Below, piece by piece: positions 451-30,030 of a stretch of DNA of 64,000 bases. Within the stretch, counting starts at the first letter, position 1; each line of letters starts with the position of its first letter. This stretch comes from Escherichia phage fDHCT2. Both the position numbers and the translations under genes were made by a program. The stretch is taken from sequence record OR427838.1; one strand, 5' to 3'. Below the pieces are notes generated by a model that had not been told where the DNA came from, did not search any database, and saw only the letters and a program-made list of their open reading frames with translations.

Positions 451-1254
451 TCACATATTATGTATAAGCACTTCAGTCTGGAATGACACACCTTTTGATA
501 CTTTTTGATATCTAGTTTCAAAATATTCAATTTTGAAATTGTTAGAAAGGGCCCAATCTTTTAGAATGTTATTATCAATATCATCTGATAGATTATTAGT
601 GATAATAAATTTAGACTTTGATCGTTTAATTTTATCTAATAATTCTAATTCATCCTTTTCTTCCCACCCCGAATATTTAAATTTAGTAGAAAGATATGGT
701 GGATCGATAAATAAGTTCCTGTTTTCAAAATCTAAATCTCTGAATGATTTATTTGAAAAACTTAGCAGATGTTGTCGATTTTTAAAAGCGGCGAATTTAT
801 CCTGTTGCGATTTATTAAAAGAAGTTCTAGAGTATTTAGCCCTATCCGCAAAAGAAGCTATATACTTATCATCTTTAGAAAATTTTAGCATTGAGCTGAA
901 TGCAAATAAATGTAGAACATACAAATACAACCCGTTTTTGGTTTTATCGTATTCCTTTGCCAGAGAGTAAAACGGTTTAGGGTCCACATCATTTAAACCG
1001 AAATCATCAATAATTTGGACAACGTCATTCATTGTTGAAGTTTTCATCGCGTTGTACATATTGATGACATGATAATTAATATCATTACACTCAACTCGCC
1101 GCCCACAATTCATAGAAAATCCAAGCCCACCACAAAAGGCATCTAAAACTATGGAGTCATCAAACCCCGTCACGAATTTATTAATAAAATCCATATATTT
1201 GTATTTTGAACCCGGGTAGGTTATCGCTGAATAATATTTCATCATATTTGCCAT
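451..1254 (-). CDS. dam: Dam-like N6-adenine DNA methyltransferase
   Basis: 267 aa; FCGGLGF SAM-binding motif and DPPY catalytic motif; blocks resemble T4 Dam (LYLYVLH, IDPPYL, WEEKDELELL). Confidence 0.8.
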   Translation of the reverse strand: MANMMKYYSAITYPGSKYKYMDFINKFVTGFDDSIVLDAFCGGLGFSMNCGRRVECNDINYHVINMYNAMKTSTMNDVVQIIDDFGLNDVDPKPFYSLAKEYDKTKNGLYLYVLHLFAFSSMLKFSKDDKYIASFADRAKYSRTSFNKSQQDKFAAFKNRQHLLSFSNKSFRDLDFENRNLFIDPPYLSTKFKYSGWEEKDELELLDKIKRSKSKFIITNNLSDDIDNNILKDWALSNNFKIEYFETRYQKVSKGVSFQTEVLIHNM

Positions 1255-1297: not shown

Positions 1298-3553
1298 TTA
1301 AAGCTTACAAGCTGCACAATCGTCGGCTTTAGGAGTTTCGATTTCATAATCGTCAGTACCAGAGCCATCACGGGTATTATGATAATAAAGGTTCTTACCA
1401 CCAAAGTACCAGAAATATAACAGGTCATCAAGCATTACCGACATAGGAACTTTTCCTTTCTCATAATTCTGAGGGTCGTAATACGTATTCGCTGATGCTG
1501 ATTGGCAAACCCATTTCAACATAATTGCTACTTGGGTAAGATAAGGTTTATTACCTTTCTTAGCGAGGCTCCAAGCATAATCATAGAGGCCTTGGTTATG
1601 TTCTACATTAGGAACTACCTGACGGAAGTTACCTTCTTTAGATTCTTTAATACTTACCGGACCACGCGGAGGTTCGATACCGTTGGTAGAGTTGGAAACC
1701 TGGCTGCTTGACTCGCATGGCATAAGTGCTGATAATGTGCTATTACGGATGCCATGTTTAACCAAGTCTTCCCGCAACGACGACCAGTCACAAACATAGT
1801 TTGGGGCTGCGATTTGGTCAATCTTTTTACTGTACCAGTCGATAGGAAGCTCGCCTCGAGACCATTTAGTGTCTGAATAATACTCGCAAGGTCCTTTTTC
1901 TTCGGCCAGCTTGATTGATGCTCGGATAAGTCCATACTGTAATCTCTCAAACAGTTCATGAGTTAAATCGTTTGCGTCTTCATAAGAAGCAAAGTTGCTT
2001 GCCAGCCATGCTGCGTAGTTAGTAACACCGACACCCAGGTTACGACGTTTCTTAGCCTTCAAAGCTTCAGGAACAGGATAGCTTTGATAATCTAATAGGT
2101 TATCAAGTGCACGTACCTGTACTTCAGCGAGTTCGTTGATTTTGTCTTGGTCTTGCCAATCAAAGTTATCCAACACGAATGCAGACAGCGTACACAACCC
2201 GATTTCAGCGTCCGGACTATTCACATCGGTAGTTGGGATAGCAATTTCACAGCATAGGTTACTTTGGCGAATAGGAGCCTTTTCACGAATAAATGGTGTG
2301 AAGTTATTAGTGTTATCAACGAACTGAGGATAAATTCGTGCAGTGCCTGAACGTTCAGTCATGAACAATTCAAAGAGGTCACGTGCTTTAATACGTTTCT
2401 TACGAATACTAGAGTCTTTTTCAGCCGCTTCATACAATTCACGGAAACGTTCTTGGTCTTCAAAATAAGAATAATAAAGCTCACCACCCATTTCATGAGG
2501 ACTGAACAGCGTGATGTAATCATTTTTACCGAAACGTTCCATCATAAGGTCGTTCAACTGGATTCCGTAGTCCATATGGCGAATACGGTTCTCATCGACC
2601 CCTTTGTTGTTTTTCAGAACGAGCAGATTTTCAACTTCCAAATGCCAAATAGGATAATAAGCAGTAGCAGCGCCGCCACGGATTCCACCTTGTGAACATG
2701 ATTTAACAGCAGTCTGGAAATGTTTCCAGAATGGAATAACGCCTGTATGTTTGACTTCACCCATGCCAATACGAGAACCTTCAGCACGAATCATACCAAC
2801 GTTGATACCAATACCTGCACGTTTAGAAATGTATTCAATTATTGAGTTAGCAGTTTTGTTAATAGATTTCAGTGAGTCGCCTGCTTCAATAACCACACAA
2901 GAACTAAATTGACGGGTTGGTGTACGTGCCCCAGCCATAATAGGAGTTGGTAATGAAACCTGACGGGTACTTACAGCATCATAAAAACGAATAATATGGG
3001 CTAAACGGTTCCCTGGCTCGTCTTGGTGTAAGGCCATGCCAATACACATGATAGCGAACTGAGGGGTTTCGTAGATTTTACCGGTTGTTTTATCTTTAAC
3101 CAGATATTTCTCTTTAAGCTGCATCGCCCCAGCATAAGTCAATTCGAAATCGCGTTCATGCTTAATATGAGATTCTAAGAAAGTAATTTCTTCTGCAGAG
3201 TAACGAGATAACAACTCAGGGTCATATTTACCTTCGTTAACACAATAGGAAATATGGTCAATAAAACTACGCGGTTCAAACTGGCCATAAACTTCTTTAC
3301 GCAGGGCAAACATCAATTGCTTTGCAGCAACATACTGATAATCAGGTTCTTCAACCGAAATAAGGTTAGCTGCTACCTTAACAGTCAGATTCTGGATATC
3401 TTTGGTAGTCATACCATCACGAAGGTGGGTTTTGATTTCTTCGTATAATTCATATGGGTCGATTTGGGTTCCTTCACAGCCCCAAGTCAGAACTTTAATA
3501 ATTTTTTGTGCGTCAAAATCTTGGGATACACCACTACTCTTTTGTACTTGCAT
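1298..3553 (-). CDS. nrdA: Ribonucleotide reductase alpha subunit
   Basis: 751 aa (T4 NrdA about 754); class I RNR large-subunit blocks incl. C-terminal redox cysteine tail CAACKL. Confidence 0.95.
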   Translation of the reverse strand: MQVQKSSGVSQDFDAQKIIKVLTWGCEGTQIDPYELYEEIKTHLRDGMTTKDIQNLTVKVAANLISVEEPDYQYVAAKQLMFALRKEVYGQFEPRSFIDHISYCVNEGKYDPELLSRYSAEEITFLESHIKHERDFELTYAGAMQLKEKYLVKDKTTGKIYETPQFAIMCIGMALHQDEPGNRLAHIIRFYDAVSTRQVSLPTPIMAGARTPTRQFSSCVVIEAGDSLKSINKTANSIIEYISKRAGIGINVGMIRAEGSRIGMGEVKHTGVIPFWKHFQTAVKSCSQGGIRGGAATAYYPIWHLEVENLLVLKNNKGVDENRIRHMDYGIQLNDLMMERFGKNDYITLFSPHEMGGELYYSYFEDQERFRELYEAAEKDSSIRKKRIKARDLFELFMTERSGTARIYPQFVDNTNNFTPFIREKAPIRQSNLCCEIAIPTTDVNSPDAEIGLCTLSAFVLDNFDWQDQDKINELAEVQVRALDNLLDYQSYPVPEALKAKKRRNLGVGVTNYAAWLASNFASYEDANDLTHELFERLQYGLIRASIKLAEEKGPCEYYSDTKWSRGELPIDWYSKKIDQIAAPNYVCDWSSLREDLVKHGIRNSTLSALMPCESSSQVSNSTNGIEPPRGPVSIKESKEGNFRQVVPNVEHNQGLYDYAWSLAKKGNKPYLTQVAIMLKWVCQSASANTYYDPQNYEKGKVPMSVMLDDLLYFWYFGGKNLYYHNTRDGSGTDDYEIETPKADDCAACKL

Positions 3554-3974: not shown

Positions 3975-5658
<1,684 letters not shown>

Positions 5659-5668
5659 TATATTTTCC

Positions 5669-5908
5669 TCACGCTTTCTTAGCGATTTTCCAGTCAGCTT
5701 TAAATTGGTCAACATCAGAATGGTGAATCCAGAAACCGGATGAGCTACCATCTTCATAAAGAGGACATCCATCACACTCATCTTTCCACCCCATCGCGCA
5801 TAAAGCTTGTTCAGCTTTTTCCAGAGCTTCCGGGTTATTACCTTGGATTGTGAAGTACCATTTGCCTTTAACTTCAGAATCGTTGATTGATTCACGTTGT
5901 AATTTCAT
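5669..5908 (-). CDS. Hypothetical small protein (start refined to ATG 5908, AGGAGA SD 5 nt upstream)
   Basis: Track ORF 5669..5929 begins at TTG; in-frame ATG with strong SD; downstream of early promoter element. Confidence 0.45.
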   Translation of the reverse strand: MKLQRESINDSEVKGKWYFTIQGNNPEALEKAEQALCAMGWKDECDGCPLYEDGSSSGFWIHHSDVDQFKADWKIAKKA

Positions 5909-5920
5909 TTTATTCTCCTT

Positions 5921-5963
5921 AGTTGACAAGGCTATAGTATCACTACCATAGCCTGATGTAAAC
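5921..5963 (-). promoter_or_regulatory. Early-type promoter element (GTTTAC -35, extended -10, conserved downstream box)
   Basis: Member of repeated element family. Confidence 0.5.
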
Positions 5964-15996: not shown

Positions 15997-18900
15997 ATGG
16001 CTACTTTAAAATCGATACAATTTAAAAGAAGTAAAACACCAGGAGCCAAGCCTACTGCAGCTCAGTTAGATGAAGGCGAACTGGCTATTAACTTGCGTGA
16101 CCGCACTATTTTTACCAAGTCAGACCAAGGACAGATTATTGATTTAGGTTTTGCTAAAGGTGGTACTGTCGACGGCGATGTGACTATTAATGGAACTTTA
16201 CGCATTAACGGTCCATTAAACAATTTTGGAAACTTTTCTACAAGCGGGTCGATTACAGCGGGCACTAGTATTTCGGGCCAAACTTTTAGAGCGTTGCAAG
16301 GCTCGTTTTATGCAAGGGCACCAAACGACGCATCGAATGCCCATTTATGGCTTGAAAATGCCGATGGTGTTGAACGGGGTGTTATATATGCTCGGCCTCA
16401 AACTACAACCGCTGGTGAAATACGTCTTAGAGTTAGACAAGGAACCGGAAGCACTATTAATAGTGAATTCTATTTCCGTTCTATAAACGGCGGTGAATTT
16501 CAAGCCAACCGTATTTTAGCATCAGATTCGTTAGTAACTAAACGCATTGCAGCTGATACAGTTATCCACGGTGGCAAAGCCTTTGGTGTATATGATACGG
16601 ATTCATTAGTTAATTATGTATATCCAGGCACCGGCGAAACAAATGGTGTAAACTATCTTCGTAAAGTTCGTGCTAAATCCGGCGGCACTATGTGGCATGA
16701 ACTTTGCACTGCCCAACTAGGCCAAGCCGATGAAATGTCTTGGTGGACAGGTAATACCCCACAGTCAAAACAGTATGGTATTCGTAACGATGGCCGAATG
16801 GCTGGCCGTAATAGCCTTGCATTAGGTACATTCACTACAGATTTCCCGTCTAGCGATTATGGTAACGTCGGTGTAATGGGTGATAAGTATCTTGTTCTCG
16901 GTGACACTGTAACTGGTCTGAAATATATTAAACAATATGTTTATGATTTAGTTGGTGGGGGTTATTCAGTTGCTTCTATTACTCCTGATAGTTTCCGTAG
17001 TACTCGTAAAGGTTTATTTGGACGTTCAGAAGACCAAGGCGCTACATGGATTATGCCAGGCACGAATGCTGCATTTTTATCAGCCCAAACTCAGGCTGAC
17101 GGGAATACAGCTGGTGATGGTCAGACACATATTGGTTATAACTCTGGTGGAAAAATGTCACACTATTTCCGCGGTAGAGGTCAAACCAATATTAACACCC
17201 AAGAAGGTATGGAACTTAACCCAGGTATTCTTAAACTAGTAACCGGTGCAAATAATGTAATGTTTTATGCTGATGGTGGTATTACATCCACTAAGCAGCT
17301 TTCAATTTATAATGGTGTTTATCTTGCAGCTAATAACTCAACCGCAGGTTTGACTTTTTCGGCAACTACCACTATTGATGGCACCAAACAAATTCTTTGG
17401 GAAGGTGGTACTCGAGCAGGCCAGAATAAGAGTTATGTAACTGTTAAAGCATGGGGTAATTCATTTAACGCCACTGGCGATAAATATCGTGAAACTGTAT
17501 TTGAAGTTAGTGACGGACAAGGATACCATTTTTATTCTCAACGTGGTGCGCCTACAGGTGACGAAACTATCGGCCCTGTATTAATGCAAGTTTCAGGTTC
17601 TTTAAATGCAAGAGGAACATTAAACGCCGGTGCCAATCTTTATGTGGGAGGATTGAGTACACATGAAGGTGCTGTGACCATGAATAATGGGCTTAATTTA
17701 ACTGGTGGGGCTTCAATTAACGGACAAGTTAAAATGGGTGGTACCGCTGATGCATTAAGAATTTGGAATGCCGAATATGGTATGATTTTCCGACGTTCGG
17801 AATCCGGTTCTTCTTCTTCATTCCATCTTATTCCTACCCTCCAGAATGCTGGCGAAAACGGTGGAATAAGTGACCTTCGCCCGCTTTCCATTAATTTGGC
17901 TAATGGCACGGTTCTAATGGGTAATAAAAGTGCTGGGTATGGTCCACTTTTCACAGTCGACAACGTAAGTAAATTTGTTCGGACCGACTGTAGACTGCGC
18001 GTTAATATGGATTCCGATGCCATTGTAATAAATGCTTCATCCCAGGCGTCATCTAACTTTATCCAGGGACGTAAAGCAGATGTTACAAAATGGTATCTCG
18101 GTATTGGCGACGGCGGCAACGTTGTTCGTTTACATAACTATACCTACTCCCACGGTATTGCATTAAACTCTGACACTGTTGATATAACCAAGGCACTTAA
18201 AATTGGTTCCGATGTTCGTATTGGTCCTGACGGTAATATTACAGGCAGCACTGCATTAGAAAACTTTAAAAACCTGAACACAACGTTAGACCGTAAAGTT
18301 AACACAGGCGGGTGGTCGGGTGGTGCTACTACAGGTTGGTATAAATTTGCTACTGTAGAAATGCCACAATCGACAGGTACAGCATCCTTTAAAATATCAG
18401 GTGGGTCTGGGTTTAATTTTAAAAGTTATGGTCAGGCTTCAATAGCCGAAATAGTCCTTAGAACCGGCAATAATAACCCTAAAGGCCTTAATGCTACGCT
18501 GTGGAATAGAACTTATGAAGCCATTTCCCAGATTGCTTCGGTTAATACAAGCGAAGATATCTATGATATTTACGTTTACATTGGTGGGTATTCTAATTCT
18601 TTGGTGGTAGAATATACCTGCAGCAGCAATAGTAAAGTAACCGTAGTGGGTATTAATAGCGGTGTCCAGCCTTTGGTAGAAACATTACCTGAAGGTCATG
18701 TTGTAGGTAAATCTGTAAGAATGCTGAACAACCTTGACGGAATGTTTGCTGCCGGCGAATCAGATATTGTTACACGTGGTGAATACGTCGCTAATAACAA
18801 AAAAGGTATGCGTATTAAATCTAGTGGTAATGATATAGATTCTAATGCCGCTTTAATTAGAAACGATGGCGGAAGTTTTTATATTTTATTTACGGATAAA

Positions 18901-19899
18901 AATACCGCAGAAAACCCAAATGCAACCGATGGTGATTGGAATGGCTTAAGACCTTTCTCTATCAACATAGCTGATGGCCGCGTTGGTATGAACCATGGGT
19001 TAAATATTACTGGCGGTGGTCTGAACGTGGCAGGTGGCCTTAATGTTACCAGTGGTAATACTAGTTTAGGTAATATCTCATCTCGTGTGGTTGCAGGTTG
19101 GCGCGGTGCCTCTGGTTGGGGTGATAACTCAGACGCAATGAAATCTAAAATCACCTTTATGGCAGACCACGGTGATTTATCTAATTCAGGTAGTTATTAT
19201 CCTATTGTCGGTGCATACAGTAACTATGGTTCGGCGGGTTATCGTCAAACCTTTGAATTTGGTTGGGTCGGTTCCGGTACCACCGCTGGATGGCGTGACG
19301 GTATTATTCGTATACGTGGCGACAATGCCAACGGCCAACAGGCAAGATGGCGCTTTACAATGGACGGTCTTTTAGATTGCCCTGGTAAAGTACAGATGCC
19401 ACAAACAAGTGCCTTTGGCGTCAACACAACTAACTCACTCGGTGGAAGTAGTATAACATTTGGCGATAGTGATACCGGTATTAAGCAAAACGGTGATGGT
19501 TTACTTGATGTTTATGCGAACAGTGTACAAGTATTCCGTTTCCAAAACGGCGATTTGTACTCGTATAAAAATATAAATGCTCCTAACGTTTATATTCGCT
19601 CTGATATTCGTTTGAAATCTAACTTCAAACCAATTGAAAACGCTCTCGAAAAGGTTGAACAGCTTGATGGTTTAATCTATGATAAAGCTGATTATATTGG
19701 TGGTGAGGTTGTTCACACTGAAGCAGGTGTTATTGCACAGAGCCTGGAAAAAGTATTACCTGAAGCTATTCGTGAAGTTGAAGATATCAAAGGTAATAAA
19801 GTTCTGACCGTTTCGACTCAGGCCCAAGTGGCGCTGTTACTTGAAGCGGTTAAAACCCTGTCGGCTAAAGTAAAAGAACTTGAAGCTAAATTAAATTAA
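15997..19899 (+). CDS. 37: Long tail fiber distal subunit gp37 with C-terminal intramolecular chaperone (peptidase S74-like) domain
   Basis: 1300 aa; C-terminal SDIRLKSNF...[13 protein letters not shown]...[15 protein letters not shown]... matches self-cleaving chaperone domains of endosialidase and T5 L-shaped fibre. Confidence 0.88.
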
Positions 19900-27072: not shown

Positions 27073-27333
27073 TCAAAACACCACCTCTTTAATTTCCATA
27101 AACCCATCATTCAGTGCATGGCGGAGTTCATAATGGATATCTATACCATCGACATTATCTAATTTACCGTCGATAAGTTTTTGTAAATCTTTTTTTGACG
27201 CTATCAAAGGACGAAGAAATCTACAATTAGAAAGGGATAATTCCGTAATAACATCTTCACCTGAGGCATCGTACATTGCGGCAACAACTTTACCTGTAAC
27301 TTTGTGTTTAGCGTAATATAATTTGATATTCAC
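27073..27333 (-). CDS. Hypothetical protein, tandem paralog A
   Basis: 86 aa; N-terminus M.IKLYYAKHKVTG shared with adjacent gene. Confidence 0.5.
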   Translation of the reverse strand: MNIKLYYAKHKVTGKVVAAMYDASGEDVITELSLSNCRFLRPLIASKKDLQKLIDGKLDNVDGIDIHYELRHALNDGFMEIKEVVF

Positions 27334-27593
27334 AATTCCACCTCAATGATTTCAAGTTGATTTTCTTTGATAGCTTTCTTGATACAATTATTCACAATAT
27401 TATCCCAAGAATCGTTTAGCTCGCCCTTCGCCATACGTTGAAGATGCTCTTTTGTGGACAAATAAGGCTGGTCTGAATCCCATCTAGATAAGAACAATGA
27501 AGTAAAAGTATCACCTTGGTTATTGGATGAAGTTGTAAATGCAATAAACTCCCCAGTAACTTTATGCTTAATATAATAAAATTTAAATTTCAT
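27330..27593 (-). CDS. Hypothetical protein, tandem paralog B
   Basis: 87 aa; MKFKFYYIKHKVTG; ATGA overlap with paralog A. Confidence 0.5.
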   Translation of the reverse strand: MKFKFYYIKHKVTGEFIAFTTSSNNQGDTFTSLFLSRWDSDQPYLSTKEHLQRMAKGELNDSWDNIVNNCIKKAIKENQLEIIEVEL

Positions 27594-27616
27594 TTTGTTT
27601 CTCCAGTTTGGTAACT

Positions 27617-27660
27617 CAGTATGGAATCATTATACATAGACTCCATACTGATGTACACTA
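27617..27660 (-). promoter_or_regulatory. Candidate promoter with -10 embedded in a 9-bp inverted repeat
   Basis: cagtatgga...tccatactg flanking TGTATAAT on minus strand. Confidence 0.3.
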
Positions 27661-27668
27661 CTTTTTAA

Positions 27669-27928
27669 TTAATTGTGCATTTGTTCTTTAACTTCTTTAT
27701 ATGCACCAACTGCATTCACGACCCCAGTAAAATCTGCTGTTCCGCGATAGAGATAGAAAGCAATTTCAGTCAGGTGATAGACTTCAAATTCTGAAAGATA
27801 AACGATAACGTCATAATATGCAACTTGACCCTGGACTTCGTTGAATGCTACATCAAAAATTTCATGGGTCGGAAAATTGATGCTTGAATAAGAATTTGTT
27901 TGATGTTTTGAGTAGTAACTTGTTCCAT
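27669..27928 (-). pseudogene. Small gene apparently split by a frameshift near a 5-nt homopolymer (27855-27859)
   Basis: ATG 27928 with GAGGA SD opens a 26-codon frame ending 27848; adjacent frame is open for about 90 codons to stop at 27669 but has no start codon. Confidence 0.35.
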
Positions 27929-27975
27929 GATAATGTCCTCATTTGTTGGTGTAAGGACATTATTACATGGTTGGT

Positions 27976-28569
27976 TCAGCTTGTAAACCGGTGATAGGGA
28001 AATTTTTCTTCTGAACAAGAACGGAGGTACCAACCATCCCCTTGTGACTTCTGCACAAAACCAGACTCAGGAACGAAAGCCCCAGGTCCAGCAAGGAATT
28101 TTGGTTTAAATCTATAGCCTTTGAGAGTCTCTTTTACATCGAACATAATCATAAGGTCAGCAAGCTTGTGTTGCATAAAAGGACCAAGATTGACCCCGTA
28201 ACCATGCGGATAATCACCCTGGTGACCAGTATGCACGGATATCCATTTGGAACCAGACTGATGAGTCTTGACTTCAATTCTTACGCCTTCCTTCGAAACT
28301 ACATCAAATGCAAAGGAATAAGGATTATCGTAATCTTCATCGCCACCACATAAAAAACCGGAGGTCCATTTAGCAATAGCTTGTTCAGCCATTGTAGCCA
28401 CCATACATCTTTGCATGACTTGCTCACGGTCCTGACCAGGGTCTTTACGCAATGAATACCTGGCAGTGTCTACAATCTTTTGCAGGGATTCGGGTGTTAA
28501 GTCTTCCTTTGTATAAAGAAAGGAGGGCATCTTTTTCAGATGCTCCCATGTTTTACTCTTCTGAATCAT
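27976..28569 (-). CDS. Hypothetical protein
   Basis: 197-aa ORF downstream of rIIB region. Confidence 0.5.
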   Translation of the reverse strand: MIQKSKTWEHLKKMPSFLYTKEDLTPESLQKIVDTARYSLRKDPGQDREQVMQRCMVATMAEQAIAKWTSGFLCGGDEDYDNPYSFAFDVVSKEGVRIEVKTHQSGSKWISVHTGHQGDYPHGYGVNLGPFMQHKLADLMIMFDVKETLKGYRFKPKFLAGPGAFVPESGFVQKSQGDGWYLRSCSEEKFPYHRFTS

Positions 28570-28822
28570 CTTTTACCTCATCGATACCGACGATTCCCCG
28601 GATATGAAGCTCGCCATAGTACAAACGGTCATTATCATCAAATGTATCAGAATCCGGGTCAGGGAATTCCCCAACAACTACTTCATCACATTCCAACCAG
28701 CCATAGTGAACATCACCTTCATGCTTGATGAGCTTACCGCAGTAAACTATTCCTGCATAATGGTGACCCCGGAGATTTGAAACTTTGATGCCACGGTCTG
28801 ACACATTGAAATGCTTAATCAT
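28553..28822 (-). CDS. Hypothetical protein
   Basis: 89-aa ORF. Confidence 0.45.
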   Translation of the reverse strand: MIKHFNVSDRGIKVSNLRGHHYAGIVYCGKLIKHEGDVHYGWLECDEVVVGEFPDPDSDTFDDNDRLYYGELHIRGIVGIDEVKDDSEE

Positions 28823-28825
28823 AAT

Positions 28826-29023
28826 TTATTCACCAAAATAAGAGATACGAGTTGCCAGTACATGAGCATAAGCGCCCATCGCATCCAACTGGGCAATCAG
28901 TAACCCTTGTTGACGGATATCAAGAGTTTCAAAAACACCACCTTTAATAAACTCTTCAAGAGCATTAATTTTCAGGACCAGTTGGTCGTATTCTTCAATT
29001 ACACGTGCTTGGAAACCTAACAT
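28826..29023 (-). CDS. Hypothetical protein
   Basis: 65-aa ORF; GAGGAA SD; hairpin just upstream. Confidence 0.45.
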   Translation of the reverse strand: MLGFQARVIEEYDQLVLKINALEEFIKGGVFETLDIRQQGLLIAQLDAMGAYAHVLATRISYFGE

Positions 29024-29061: not shown

Positions 29062-30030
29062 TTAGTATTTGTATTCGTTTGCGAACTGTTCAGTGACGTC
29101 TTCTAGAACTTCATAATAACATACACGCATTTTAGCATCACCGTAATCGACCGGAATACTAACAACATCACGTGGGTTAACTTTACACGAAACTACTTTA
29201 CAGCTTGAGTTACCAAAATGCCTGATATAGCTACGAGAGCAAACATGCAGACCTGTTGAACAAGTTACTTCGTCGTCATCATTTACACGCGAACGAGGCA
29301 TTTTAACTGGCTTACCTGGCGAGTTATCAAACGTGCCGGTACGGCAGTCGGTGTAATCGGAGTTAACTACCTTCCACGTAATAAAGTGGCCATCTTCAGT
29401 GATTTTGATATCGTTTGCAACCAGGAAGTCGAACAGACGCTGTACAGCTTTTTCGCTTGGGTTTTCTAACAGATTCTCAAGGAACGGCAGGTAGAATTCG
29501 AAGTCTTCACCATTTTCCATTGAGGTGATAATACGGTCAATCAACCCTGAACGCAATTCGATACCTTGATAAACCAGACGTCCACCTTCAATACGAACGT
29601 TACCTTTAACGAAAGCCTTAACAGCTTCTTTAATGGAAATCAGTTTAATCGCATCATCGAAACGAGATTCTTTAAGAGCCTGTACGATGGCATCAAAATG
29701 TTTGTTCTTATTAGTGGTATTCCATACTGTACGACCTTCAGTGATGGATACGAATTTAGAACTCGCATTCCAAATAATTTCAGGACGAGAACCACCAATA
29801 GTAGCTTCAACAGGAACTACACGAGGCTCGTTAGGAACTGTTACTTTGATATTTCCGGTAATAACCACTTGCGAACGTTTAGCTTCTTCAGCATTTTTCA
29901 GGACTTTACGAATGGTATCAACCGAAACACCATACCAGTCAGCTAGTTCTTGCTGGGTATAATTACCAGATTTATAGAGGGAAACTACTTTCTCTTGTTC
30001 AGATTTAGCCAGGCACTTAATATTGTACAT
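29062..30030 (-). CDS. rIIB: rIIB membrane-associated protein
   Basis: 322 aa; near-colinear with remembered T4 rIIB (MYNIKCL, GNYTQQELADW, FEFY.PFLENLLENPS). Confidence 0.88.
   Translation of the reverse strand: MYNIKCLAKSEQEKVVSLYKSGNYTQQELADWYGVSVDTIRKVLKNAEEAKRSQVVITGNIKVTVPNEPRVVPVEATIGGSRPEIIWNASSKFVSITEGRTVWNTTNKNKHFDAIVQALKESRFDDAIKLISIKEAVKAFVKGNVRIEGGRLVYQGIELRSGLIDRIITSMENGEDFEFYLPFLENLLENPSEKAVQRLFDFLVANDIKITEDGHFITWKVVNSDYTDCRTGTFDNSPGKPVKMPRSRVNDDDEVTCSTGLHVCSRSYIRHFGNSSCKVVSCKVNPRDVVSIPVDYGDAKMRVCYYEVLEDVTEQFANEYKY

Follow-up and report, generated by a model that had tools for sequence, protein, structure and literature searches.

The gene that follows denB in the T4-like phage (Straboviridae, Tevenvirinae) analysed here appears to have been disrupted by a single deletion of 16 nt. 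Throughout, the window denotes the whole stretch of DNA that was analysed, which comprises 64,000 nucleotides (Escherichia phage fDHCT2, record OR427838.1). Judging from comparisons with intact relatives, we consider it likely, with a probability of roughly 0.8, that the locus at positions 27669-27928 (minus strand) is an ordinary pseudogene, in which a genuine, isolate-specific deletion has inactivated an accessory gene. The preliminary description of this DNA had offered three options for the apparent frameshift, namely a genuine pseudogene, a sequencing indel at a homopolymer or a programmed frameshift; the first of these is favoured, in the form of the 16-nt deletion, and the other two did not survive the comparison. 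The locus should be annotated as one disrupted gene with a 16-nt deletion; annotation as a pair of ORFs, as an error in a homopolymer or as a site of recoding should be avoided. The gene family concerned (SP18 gp282 / VR7ORF288c) is already known, although uncharacterised, and in this respect the finding is an ordinary one. The features to which we refer below are as follows (positions are those of the window).

29062-30030, minus strand: rIIB
28826-29023, minus strand: denB.1-like gene
28553-28822, minus strand: gene for a DUF7418 protein
27976-28569, minus strand: denB (DNA endonuclease IV), the intact upstream neighbour and synteny anchor (phrog_1360, DenB-like, E 4e-80)
27959-27987, minus strand: promoter-like site, sigma-70/T4-early-like (TTTACA-17-AATAAT plus TG extension), inside the 3' end of denB, with 10 of 12 consensus matches
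27933-27960, minus strand: 9-bp hairpin ATGTCCTTA-N10-TGAGGACAT from the MFE fold, with the GAGGA SD (27940-27936) in its 3' arm
27669-27928, minus strand: focal locus, between denB and the phrog_2390 paralogues
27848-27928, minus strand: truncated reading frame, consisting of 15 native codons (MEQVTTQNIKQILIQ), 11 out-of-frame codons (ASIFRPMKFLM) and TAG
27881-27882, minus strand: deletion junction, from the five-genome alignment and a codon-aware comparison
27669-27881, minus strand: out-of-frame remnant, corresponding to orthologue codons 22-91 (INFPTHEIF...KEQMHN) and TAA, in the -1 frame relative to the ATG
27855-27859, minus strand: T5 run (A5 on the plus strand), identical in DCP80, CJ20, SP18 and VR7, which have intact genes
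27330-27593 and 27073-27333, minus strand: two tandem phrog_2390 paralogues (87 and 86 aa), with the PHROG label function unknown

Two overlapping frames and their intact counterpart

The layout of the locus is as the preliminary description had it. The minus strand reads GAGGACATTATCATG, with the start at ATG 27928 well placed 7 nt behind the GAGGA motif (27940-27936), and the 26-codon frame that opens there translates as MEQVTTQNIKQILIQASIFRPMKFLM, with TAG 27850-27848 as its stop. In the adjacent -1 frame no stop interrupts the 89 codons between TGA 27941 and TAA 27671-27669; this frame is in effect startless, its first canonical start being GTG 27719, a mere 16 codons ahead of the stop. 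An open stretch of 89 codons is expected from base composition alone with P ~0.0024 per position; however, this second frame, which had been called protein-like, displays 96% protein identity to intact orthologues (to P0001 over 69 aa), and it is therefore real coding sequence, beyond chance openness. Downstream of the deletion junction the two frames overlap by 34 nt.

Among Gaprivervirus-type T4-like phages the locus is one gene of ~91 codons directly 3' of denB. It is annotated as one 276-nt CDS (91 codons) right after denB in DCP80, SP18 and VR7, and CJ20, for which an earlier start has been annotated (366-nt / 121-aa CDS), contains the 91-codon frame too; the position immediately 3' of denB, on the same strand, is found in the annotation of DCP80, CJ20, SP18, VR7 and EAWsc9. 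The family (SP18 gp282 / VR7ORF288c / CJ20_051) carries the label hypothetical protein, and the intact orthologue matches phrog_17571 with E 2.6e-61. When the intact orthologue was used as the query in tblastn, one unbroken match to residues 1-91 was obtained in 34 of 34 records, at 93-100% identity. The 16 nt that the window lacks are also present in three IMG/VR loci and one metagenome locus; ORFs extracted from three of these four loci are intact, with 91 or 92 codons, and the fourth locus matches residues 1-91 unbroken. The protein cluster at 90% identity has 69 members, the 15 members listed spanning 89-121 aa, and IQALKNNNINFPTHEIF is kept in every member that was retrieved. A HMMER search of 1.84 billion representative proteins yielded a single further true relative, P0002 (54% identity), which is encoded in the rIIB-denB neighbourhood of another T4-like contig. 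Since both P0002 and the orthologues keep the NNN motif, the polarity of the change is a loss in the window and not a gain elsewhere. The comparison with orthologues that had been proposed as a check thus revealed one continuous 91-codon gene, and neither two separate genes nor a non-coding second frame. The window copy retains the SD, start and stop of the SP18/VR7/CJ20 gene and fails to form the single ~91-codon ORF, breaking after codon 16 and reaching a stop at codon 27. It is probably a pseudogene of the phrog_17571 family.

The 16-nt deletion and its age

Alignment of the window with DCP80, CJ20, SP18 and VR7 contains a single gap, where the window is without 16 nt (ACTCAAAAACAACAAC), and outside this gap the column identity is ~96%. 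The orthologues read CAAGC-ACTCAAAAACAACAAC-ATCAATTTTCC where the window reads CAAGC-ATCAATTTTCC, and the stretch across the deletion measures 217 nt in all 34 matching phage records compared to 201 nt in the window. The first 47 nt of the truncated frame align, as DNA, with orthologue codons 1-16. What has been lost is orthologue codons 17-21 and one further base, which is the conserved ALKNNNI segment, and, because 16 is not a multiple of three, the sequence past codon 16 is shifted to the -1 frame. Two H-to-Q changes upstream of the junction, at codons 3 and 7, are also private to the window copy.

The deleted stretch is A/C-rich and of low complexity. At this point the orthologues read CAAG-CA-CTCAAAAACAACAA-CA-TCAA, where the 2-nt repeat CA bounds the deleted segment on either side and leaves the placement of the junction ambiguous by 1-2 nt in each direction; in addition, CA[C]TCAA on one flank and CATCAA on the other make up an imperfect direct repeat. 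The 16 nt may therefore have been lost via replication slippage or illegitimate recombination between these imperfect short direct repeats in the A/C-rich tract, an event that would have placed the 70 codons that follow in the -1 frame and that was probably specific to this isolate or lineage and very recent. The slippage mechanism is inferred from the repeats. The sequence could also result from two steps, an in-frame deletion of 15 nt between TCAA repeats and then an independent loss of 1 nt. Non-essential regions of T4 are well known for spontaneous deletions between short direct repeats, the classical rII deletion and frameshift mutants being the example. The present locus resembles these in that a small deletion at imperfect short repeats in an A-rich tract creates a frameshift null in the dispensable rII-denB-ndd neighbourhood. 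It differs from them in having no known selection or phenotype and in its limited microhomology, of which only 2 nt (CA) are perfect within an imperfect 6-7-nt repeat.

The remnant itself bears no trace of decay. With the gap restored, the 70 codons past the junction differ from those of CJ20 by 7 synonymous and 0 non-synonymous changes, and each residue of the remnant occurs in some intact orthologue. This pattern suggests that the remnant was under purifying selection essentially until the present, and divergence at synonymous positions only means that the deletion is either very recent or absent from the phage DNA.

Alternatives to a genuine deletion

According to the preliminary description the frames cross near the A5/T5 run. 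The run is indeed there, at 27855-27859, but the change of frame occurs elsewhere, the gap sitting 22-27 nt upstream of it. In favour of a single-base sequencing indel in the run, as that description had envisaged, the run is real and falls within the stretch that both frames share; however, neither its length nor its sequence differs in the four intact relatives, the AAATTTTTGAT segment that contains it is invariant in relatives having the intact gene, and the only length difference is the 16-nt gap. As the lesion is a 16-nt deletion upstream, a sequencing error in the homopolymer loses its chief support, and we give this reading virtually no credence. The proposal that a programmed -1 ribosomal frameshift, or other recoding such as gene-60-style bypassing, joins the frames into a functional protein fares hardly better and is extremely improbable. 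A -1 shift anywhere within 27881-27851 would rejoin the frames, and the overlap carries AAATTTTTG right before the stop codon. Yet this sequence (A3T5) is read straight through in all intact orthologues, there is no X_XXY_YYZ heptamer in the 0 frame among all heptamers between 27884 and 27848, the two-frame layout is found in 0 of 34 related records, and the joined product would still be without the invariant LKNNN segment and would contain up to 9 missense residues. Folding of 27960-27800 in a pseudoknot-free model gave an MFE of -25.4 kcal/mol compared to -23.1 kcal/mol for shuffles (z = -0.79), and the MFE fold from this model contained no distinct hairpin or pseudoknot 5-9 nt past a candidate slip site. 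The locus thus shares with known cases of programmed -1 frameshifting (dnaX and the phage tail chaperone G/GT) the overlapping frames and an upstream frame that ends soon after the overlap, but it differs from them in being without a slippery heptamer, conservation of the layout or, in the pseudoknot-free fold, an evident stimulatory structure. Two related candidates were also set aside. For a gene-60-like bypass from the ATG-TAG at 27853-27848, the next ATG (in GCATATTATGACG) is off the remnant frame, as checked by eye, and the layout is confined to the window genome. Re-initiation in the remnant frame would have to do without an ATG, GTG or TTG until GTG 27719 is reached, and the near-cognate ATC/ATT codons at 27881, 27860 and 27806 are without an SD.

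An assembly, consensus or cloning artefact, with the phage DNA keeping an intact 276-nt gene, is an unlikely explanation that nevertheless deserves some weight. The allele is unique, being found neither among the 34 related genomes nor in viral, metagenome or genome collections, where a junction 27-mer had no match; the absence of any decay in the remnant is what an artefact would also yield; and the missing stretch is of low complexity and A/C-rich. A degenerate junction 21-mer likewise had no match in the viral collection; it did occur three times in the genome collection, but only in unrelated MAGs, and we took these matches to be chance. Exact look-ups of DenB from the window and of the 87-aa neighbouring protein also returned no record, and the phage itself thus has no other representative. 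On the other hand, the usual platform errors are of 1-2 nt in homopolymers and not of 16 nt, and the homopolymer here is intact; the deleted segment contains no long repeat for an assembler to collapse; and none of the ~55 AnYang proteins that map over some 48 kb of the window is split, each mapping in one frame, which makes a poor assembly unlikely. We infer that the deletion is present in the phage DNA rather than in the assembly alone.

If the deletion is genuine, the knockout could be adaptive and not neutral, either because a host defence detects the 91-aa protein, or acts more readily on phage that make it, or because the 26-aa peptide is newly active. The two private H-to-Q changes would fit either idea and are far too few to serve as a test, and we regard an adaptive knockout as quite improbable. 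Were it adaptive via host defence or abortive infection, the isolate would be a natural escape mutant that arose via a 16-nt deletion. Under the reading that we prefer, an ordinary pseudogene, the window supplies a naturally occurring null allele of a conserved gene that lies in the hyperplastic rIIB-denB-ndd region, and the existence of this allele suggests that propagation on the isolation host does not require the gene. The deleted copy and its intact relatives offer a ready comparison for study of the role of the gene.

Genomic setting, expression signals and function

The focal locus lies in a mosaic part of the genome. Over the surrounding 20 kb the window shows ~92% identity to Dhakavirus genomes, AnYang among them, and for most AnYang proteins the identity to the window is 90-100%. 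Within 1.3 kb around the locus the resemblance is instead to Gaprivervirus phages (DCP80, CJ20, SP18, VR7 and others), at 89-94% DNA identity, as it is for the block from denB to 27330; the DenB protein of the window is just 45% identical to that of AnYang, and the focal gene is missing from AnYang altogether. A Gaprivervirus-like block amid Dhakavirus-like genes identifies the denB module as a mosaic block, and the location of the gene in the plastic rIIB-denB-ndd accessory region suggests that its loss is tolerated. The genes that flank the ~27300-28600 block have 95-100% protein identity to those of Dhakavirus AnYang. In the relatives, denB is annotated as endonuclease IV. Downstream of the phrog_2390 pair, in which the stop of the first gene overlaps the start of the second in an ATGA-type junction at 27330-27333, follow an ndd.4-like ORF and ndd.

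The promoter-like sequence at 27959-27987 is conserved in the relatives; it serves as a lead only, as sites found in the promoter consensus scan were overall no more frequent than in shuffles. In the hairpin at 27933-27960, 7 of the 9 pairs of the stem are invariant in the five genomes, and no compensatory change was seen. The promoter-like site ends right at the 5' arm of this hairpin, so that transcripts starting from it would be without the 5' arm and have the SD exposed, whereas in read-through from denB the SD would be occluded, an arrangement that resembles the classic T4 layout for temporal translational control. In the window copy, initiation at the normal SD and ATG is predicted to produce just 26 residues, of which 15 are native and 11 missense, and synthesis of the conserved body of the protein is not expected. 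A separate promoter-like site (27657-27629) and a GGAG SD precede the next gene (27593-27330), for which no polar effect of the lesion is therefore anticipated.

Searches for the function of the intact protein returned little. Both phrog_17571 and the related phrog_18576 are labelled 'unknown function', the intact protein had no match in Pfam, at cut-offs of E 0.1 and of E 10, or in NCBIfam, at a cut-off of E 1, and a profile search of the PDB with it gave 0 matches. Confidence was low for both AlphaFold models, which moreover were discordant (pLDDT 63, alpha/beta, compared to pLDDT 47, all alpha), and the best Foldseek match to the PDB, obtained with a low-confidence model, had E = 2.8, none being significant; nothing on the focal gene was found in the literature on VR7, SP18 and denB. 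The orthologue in EAWsc9 is labelled 'MafI family immunity protein' (PQ341120.1), an assignment that our searches did not reproduce, with no MafI match in Pfam or NCBIfam and no significant fold match; the likeness is one of small size (~90 aa) and nothing more. The labels of this record (1553-1828 and 2074-2340) look over-permissive, an 88-aa ORF there being called 'COesterase domain-containing protein'. Judging from its position, its putative early-type promoter and the plastic block in which it lies, the gene most likely encodes an early accessory protein that the phage can do without; the suggestion that it is dispensable draws on the position of the gene and its patchy distribution.

Several other differences from AnYang are evident in the window. 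A 267-aa D12-class N6-adenine DNA methyltransferase (451-1254, minus strand; Pfam PF02086, E 1e-19, DPPY motif) sits between nrdA (1298-3553) and nrdB (from 433), where the gap in AnYang is 24 nt. At 4832-5929 (minus strand) an apparent split of frd proved to be a difference in annotation: the AnYang frd is annotated as 233 aa with an N-terminal extension, which produces a false 'split' signal in tblastn, and the window has a standard 193-aa frd and separate upstream ORFs, which include a DUF5417 protein at 5669-5929 (minus strand). The distal long-tail-fibre subunit (gp37-like; 15997-19896, plus strand) is 45% identical to that of AnYang, compared to 82-98% for the neighbouring fibre genes, a divergence that suggests a swap of a host-range module.
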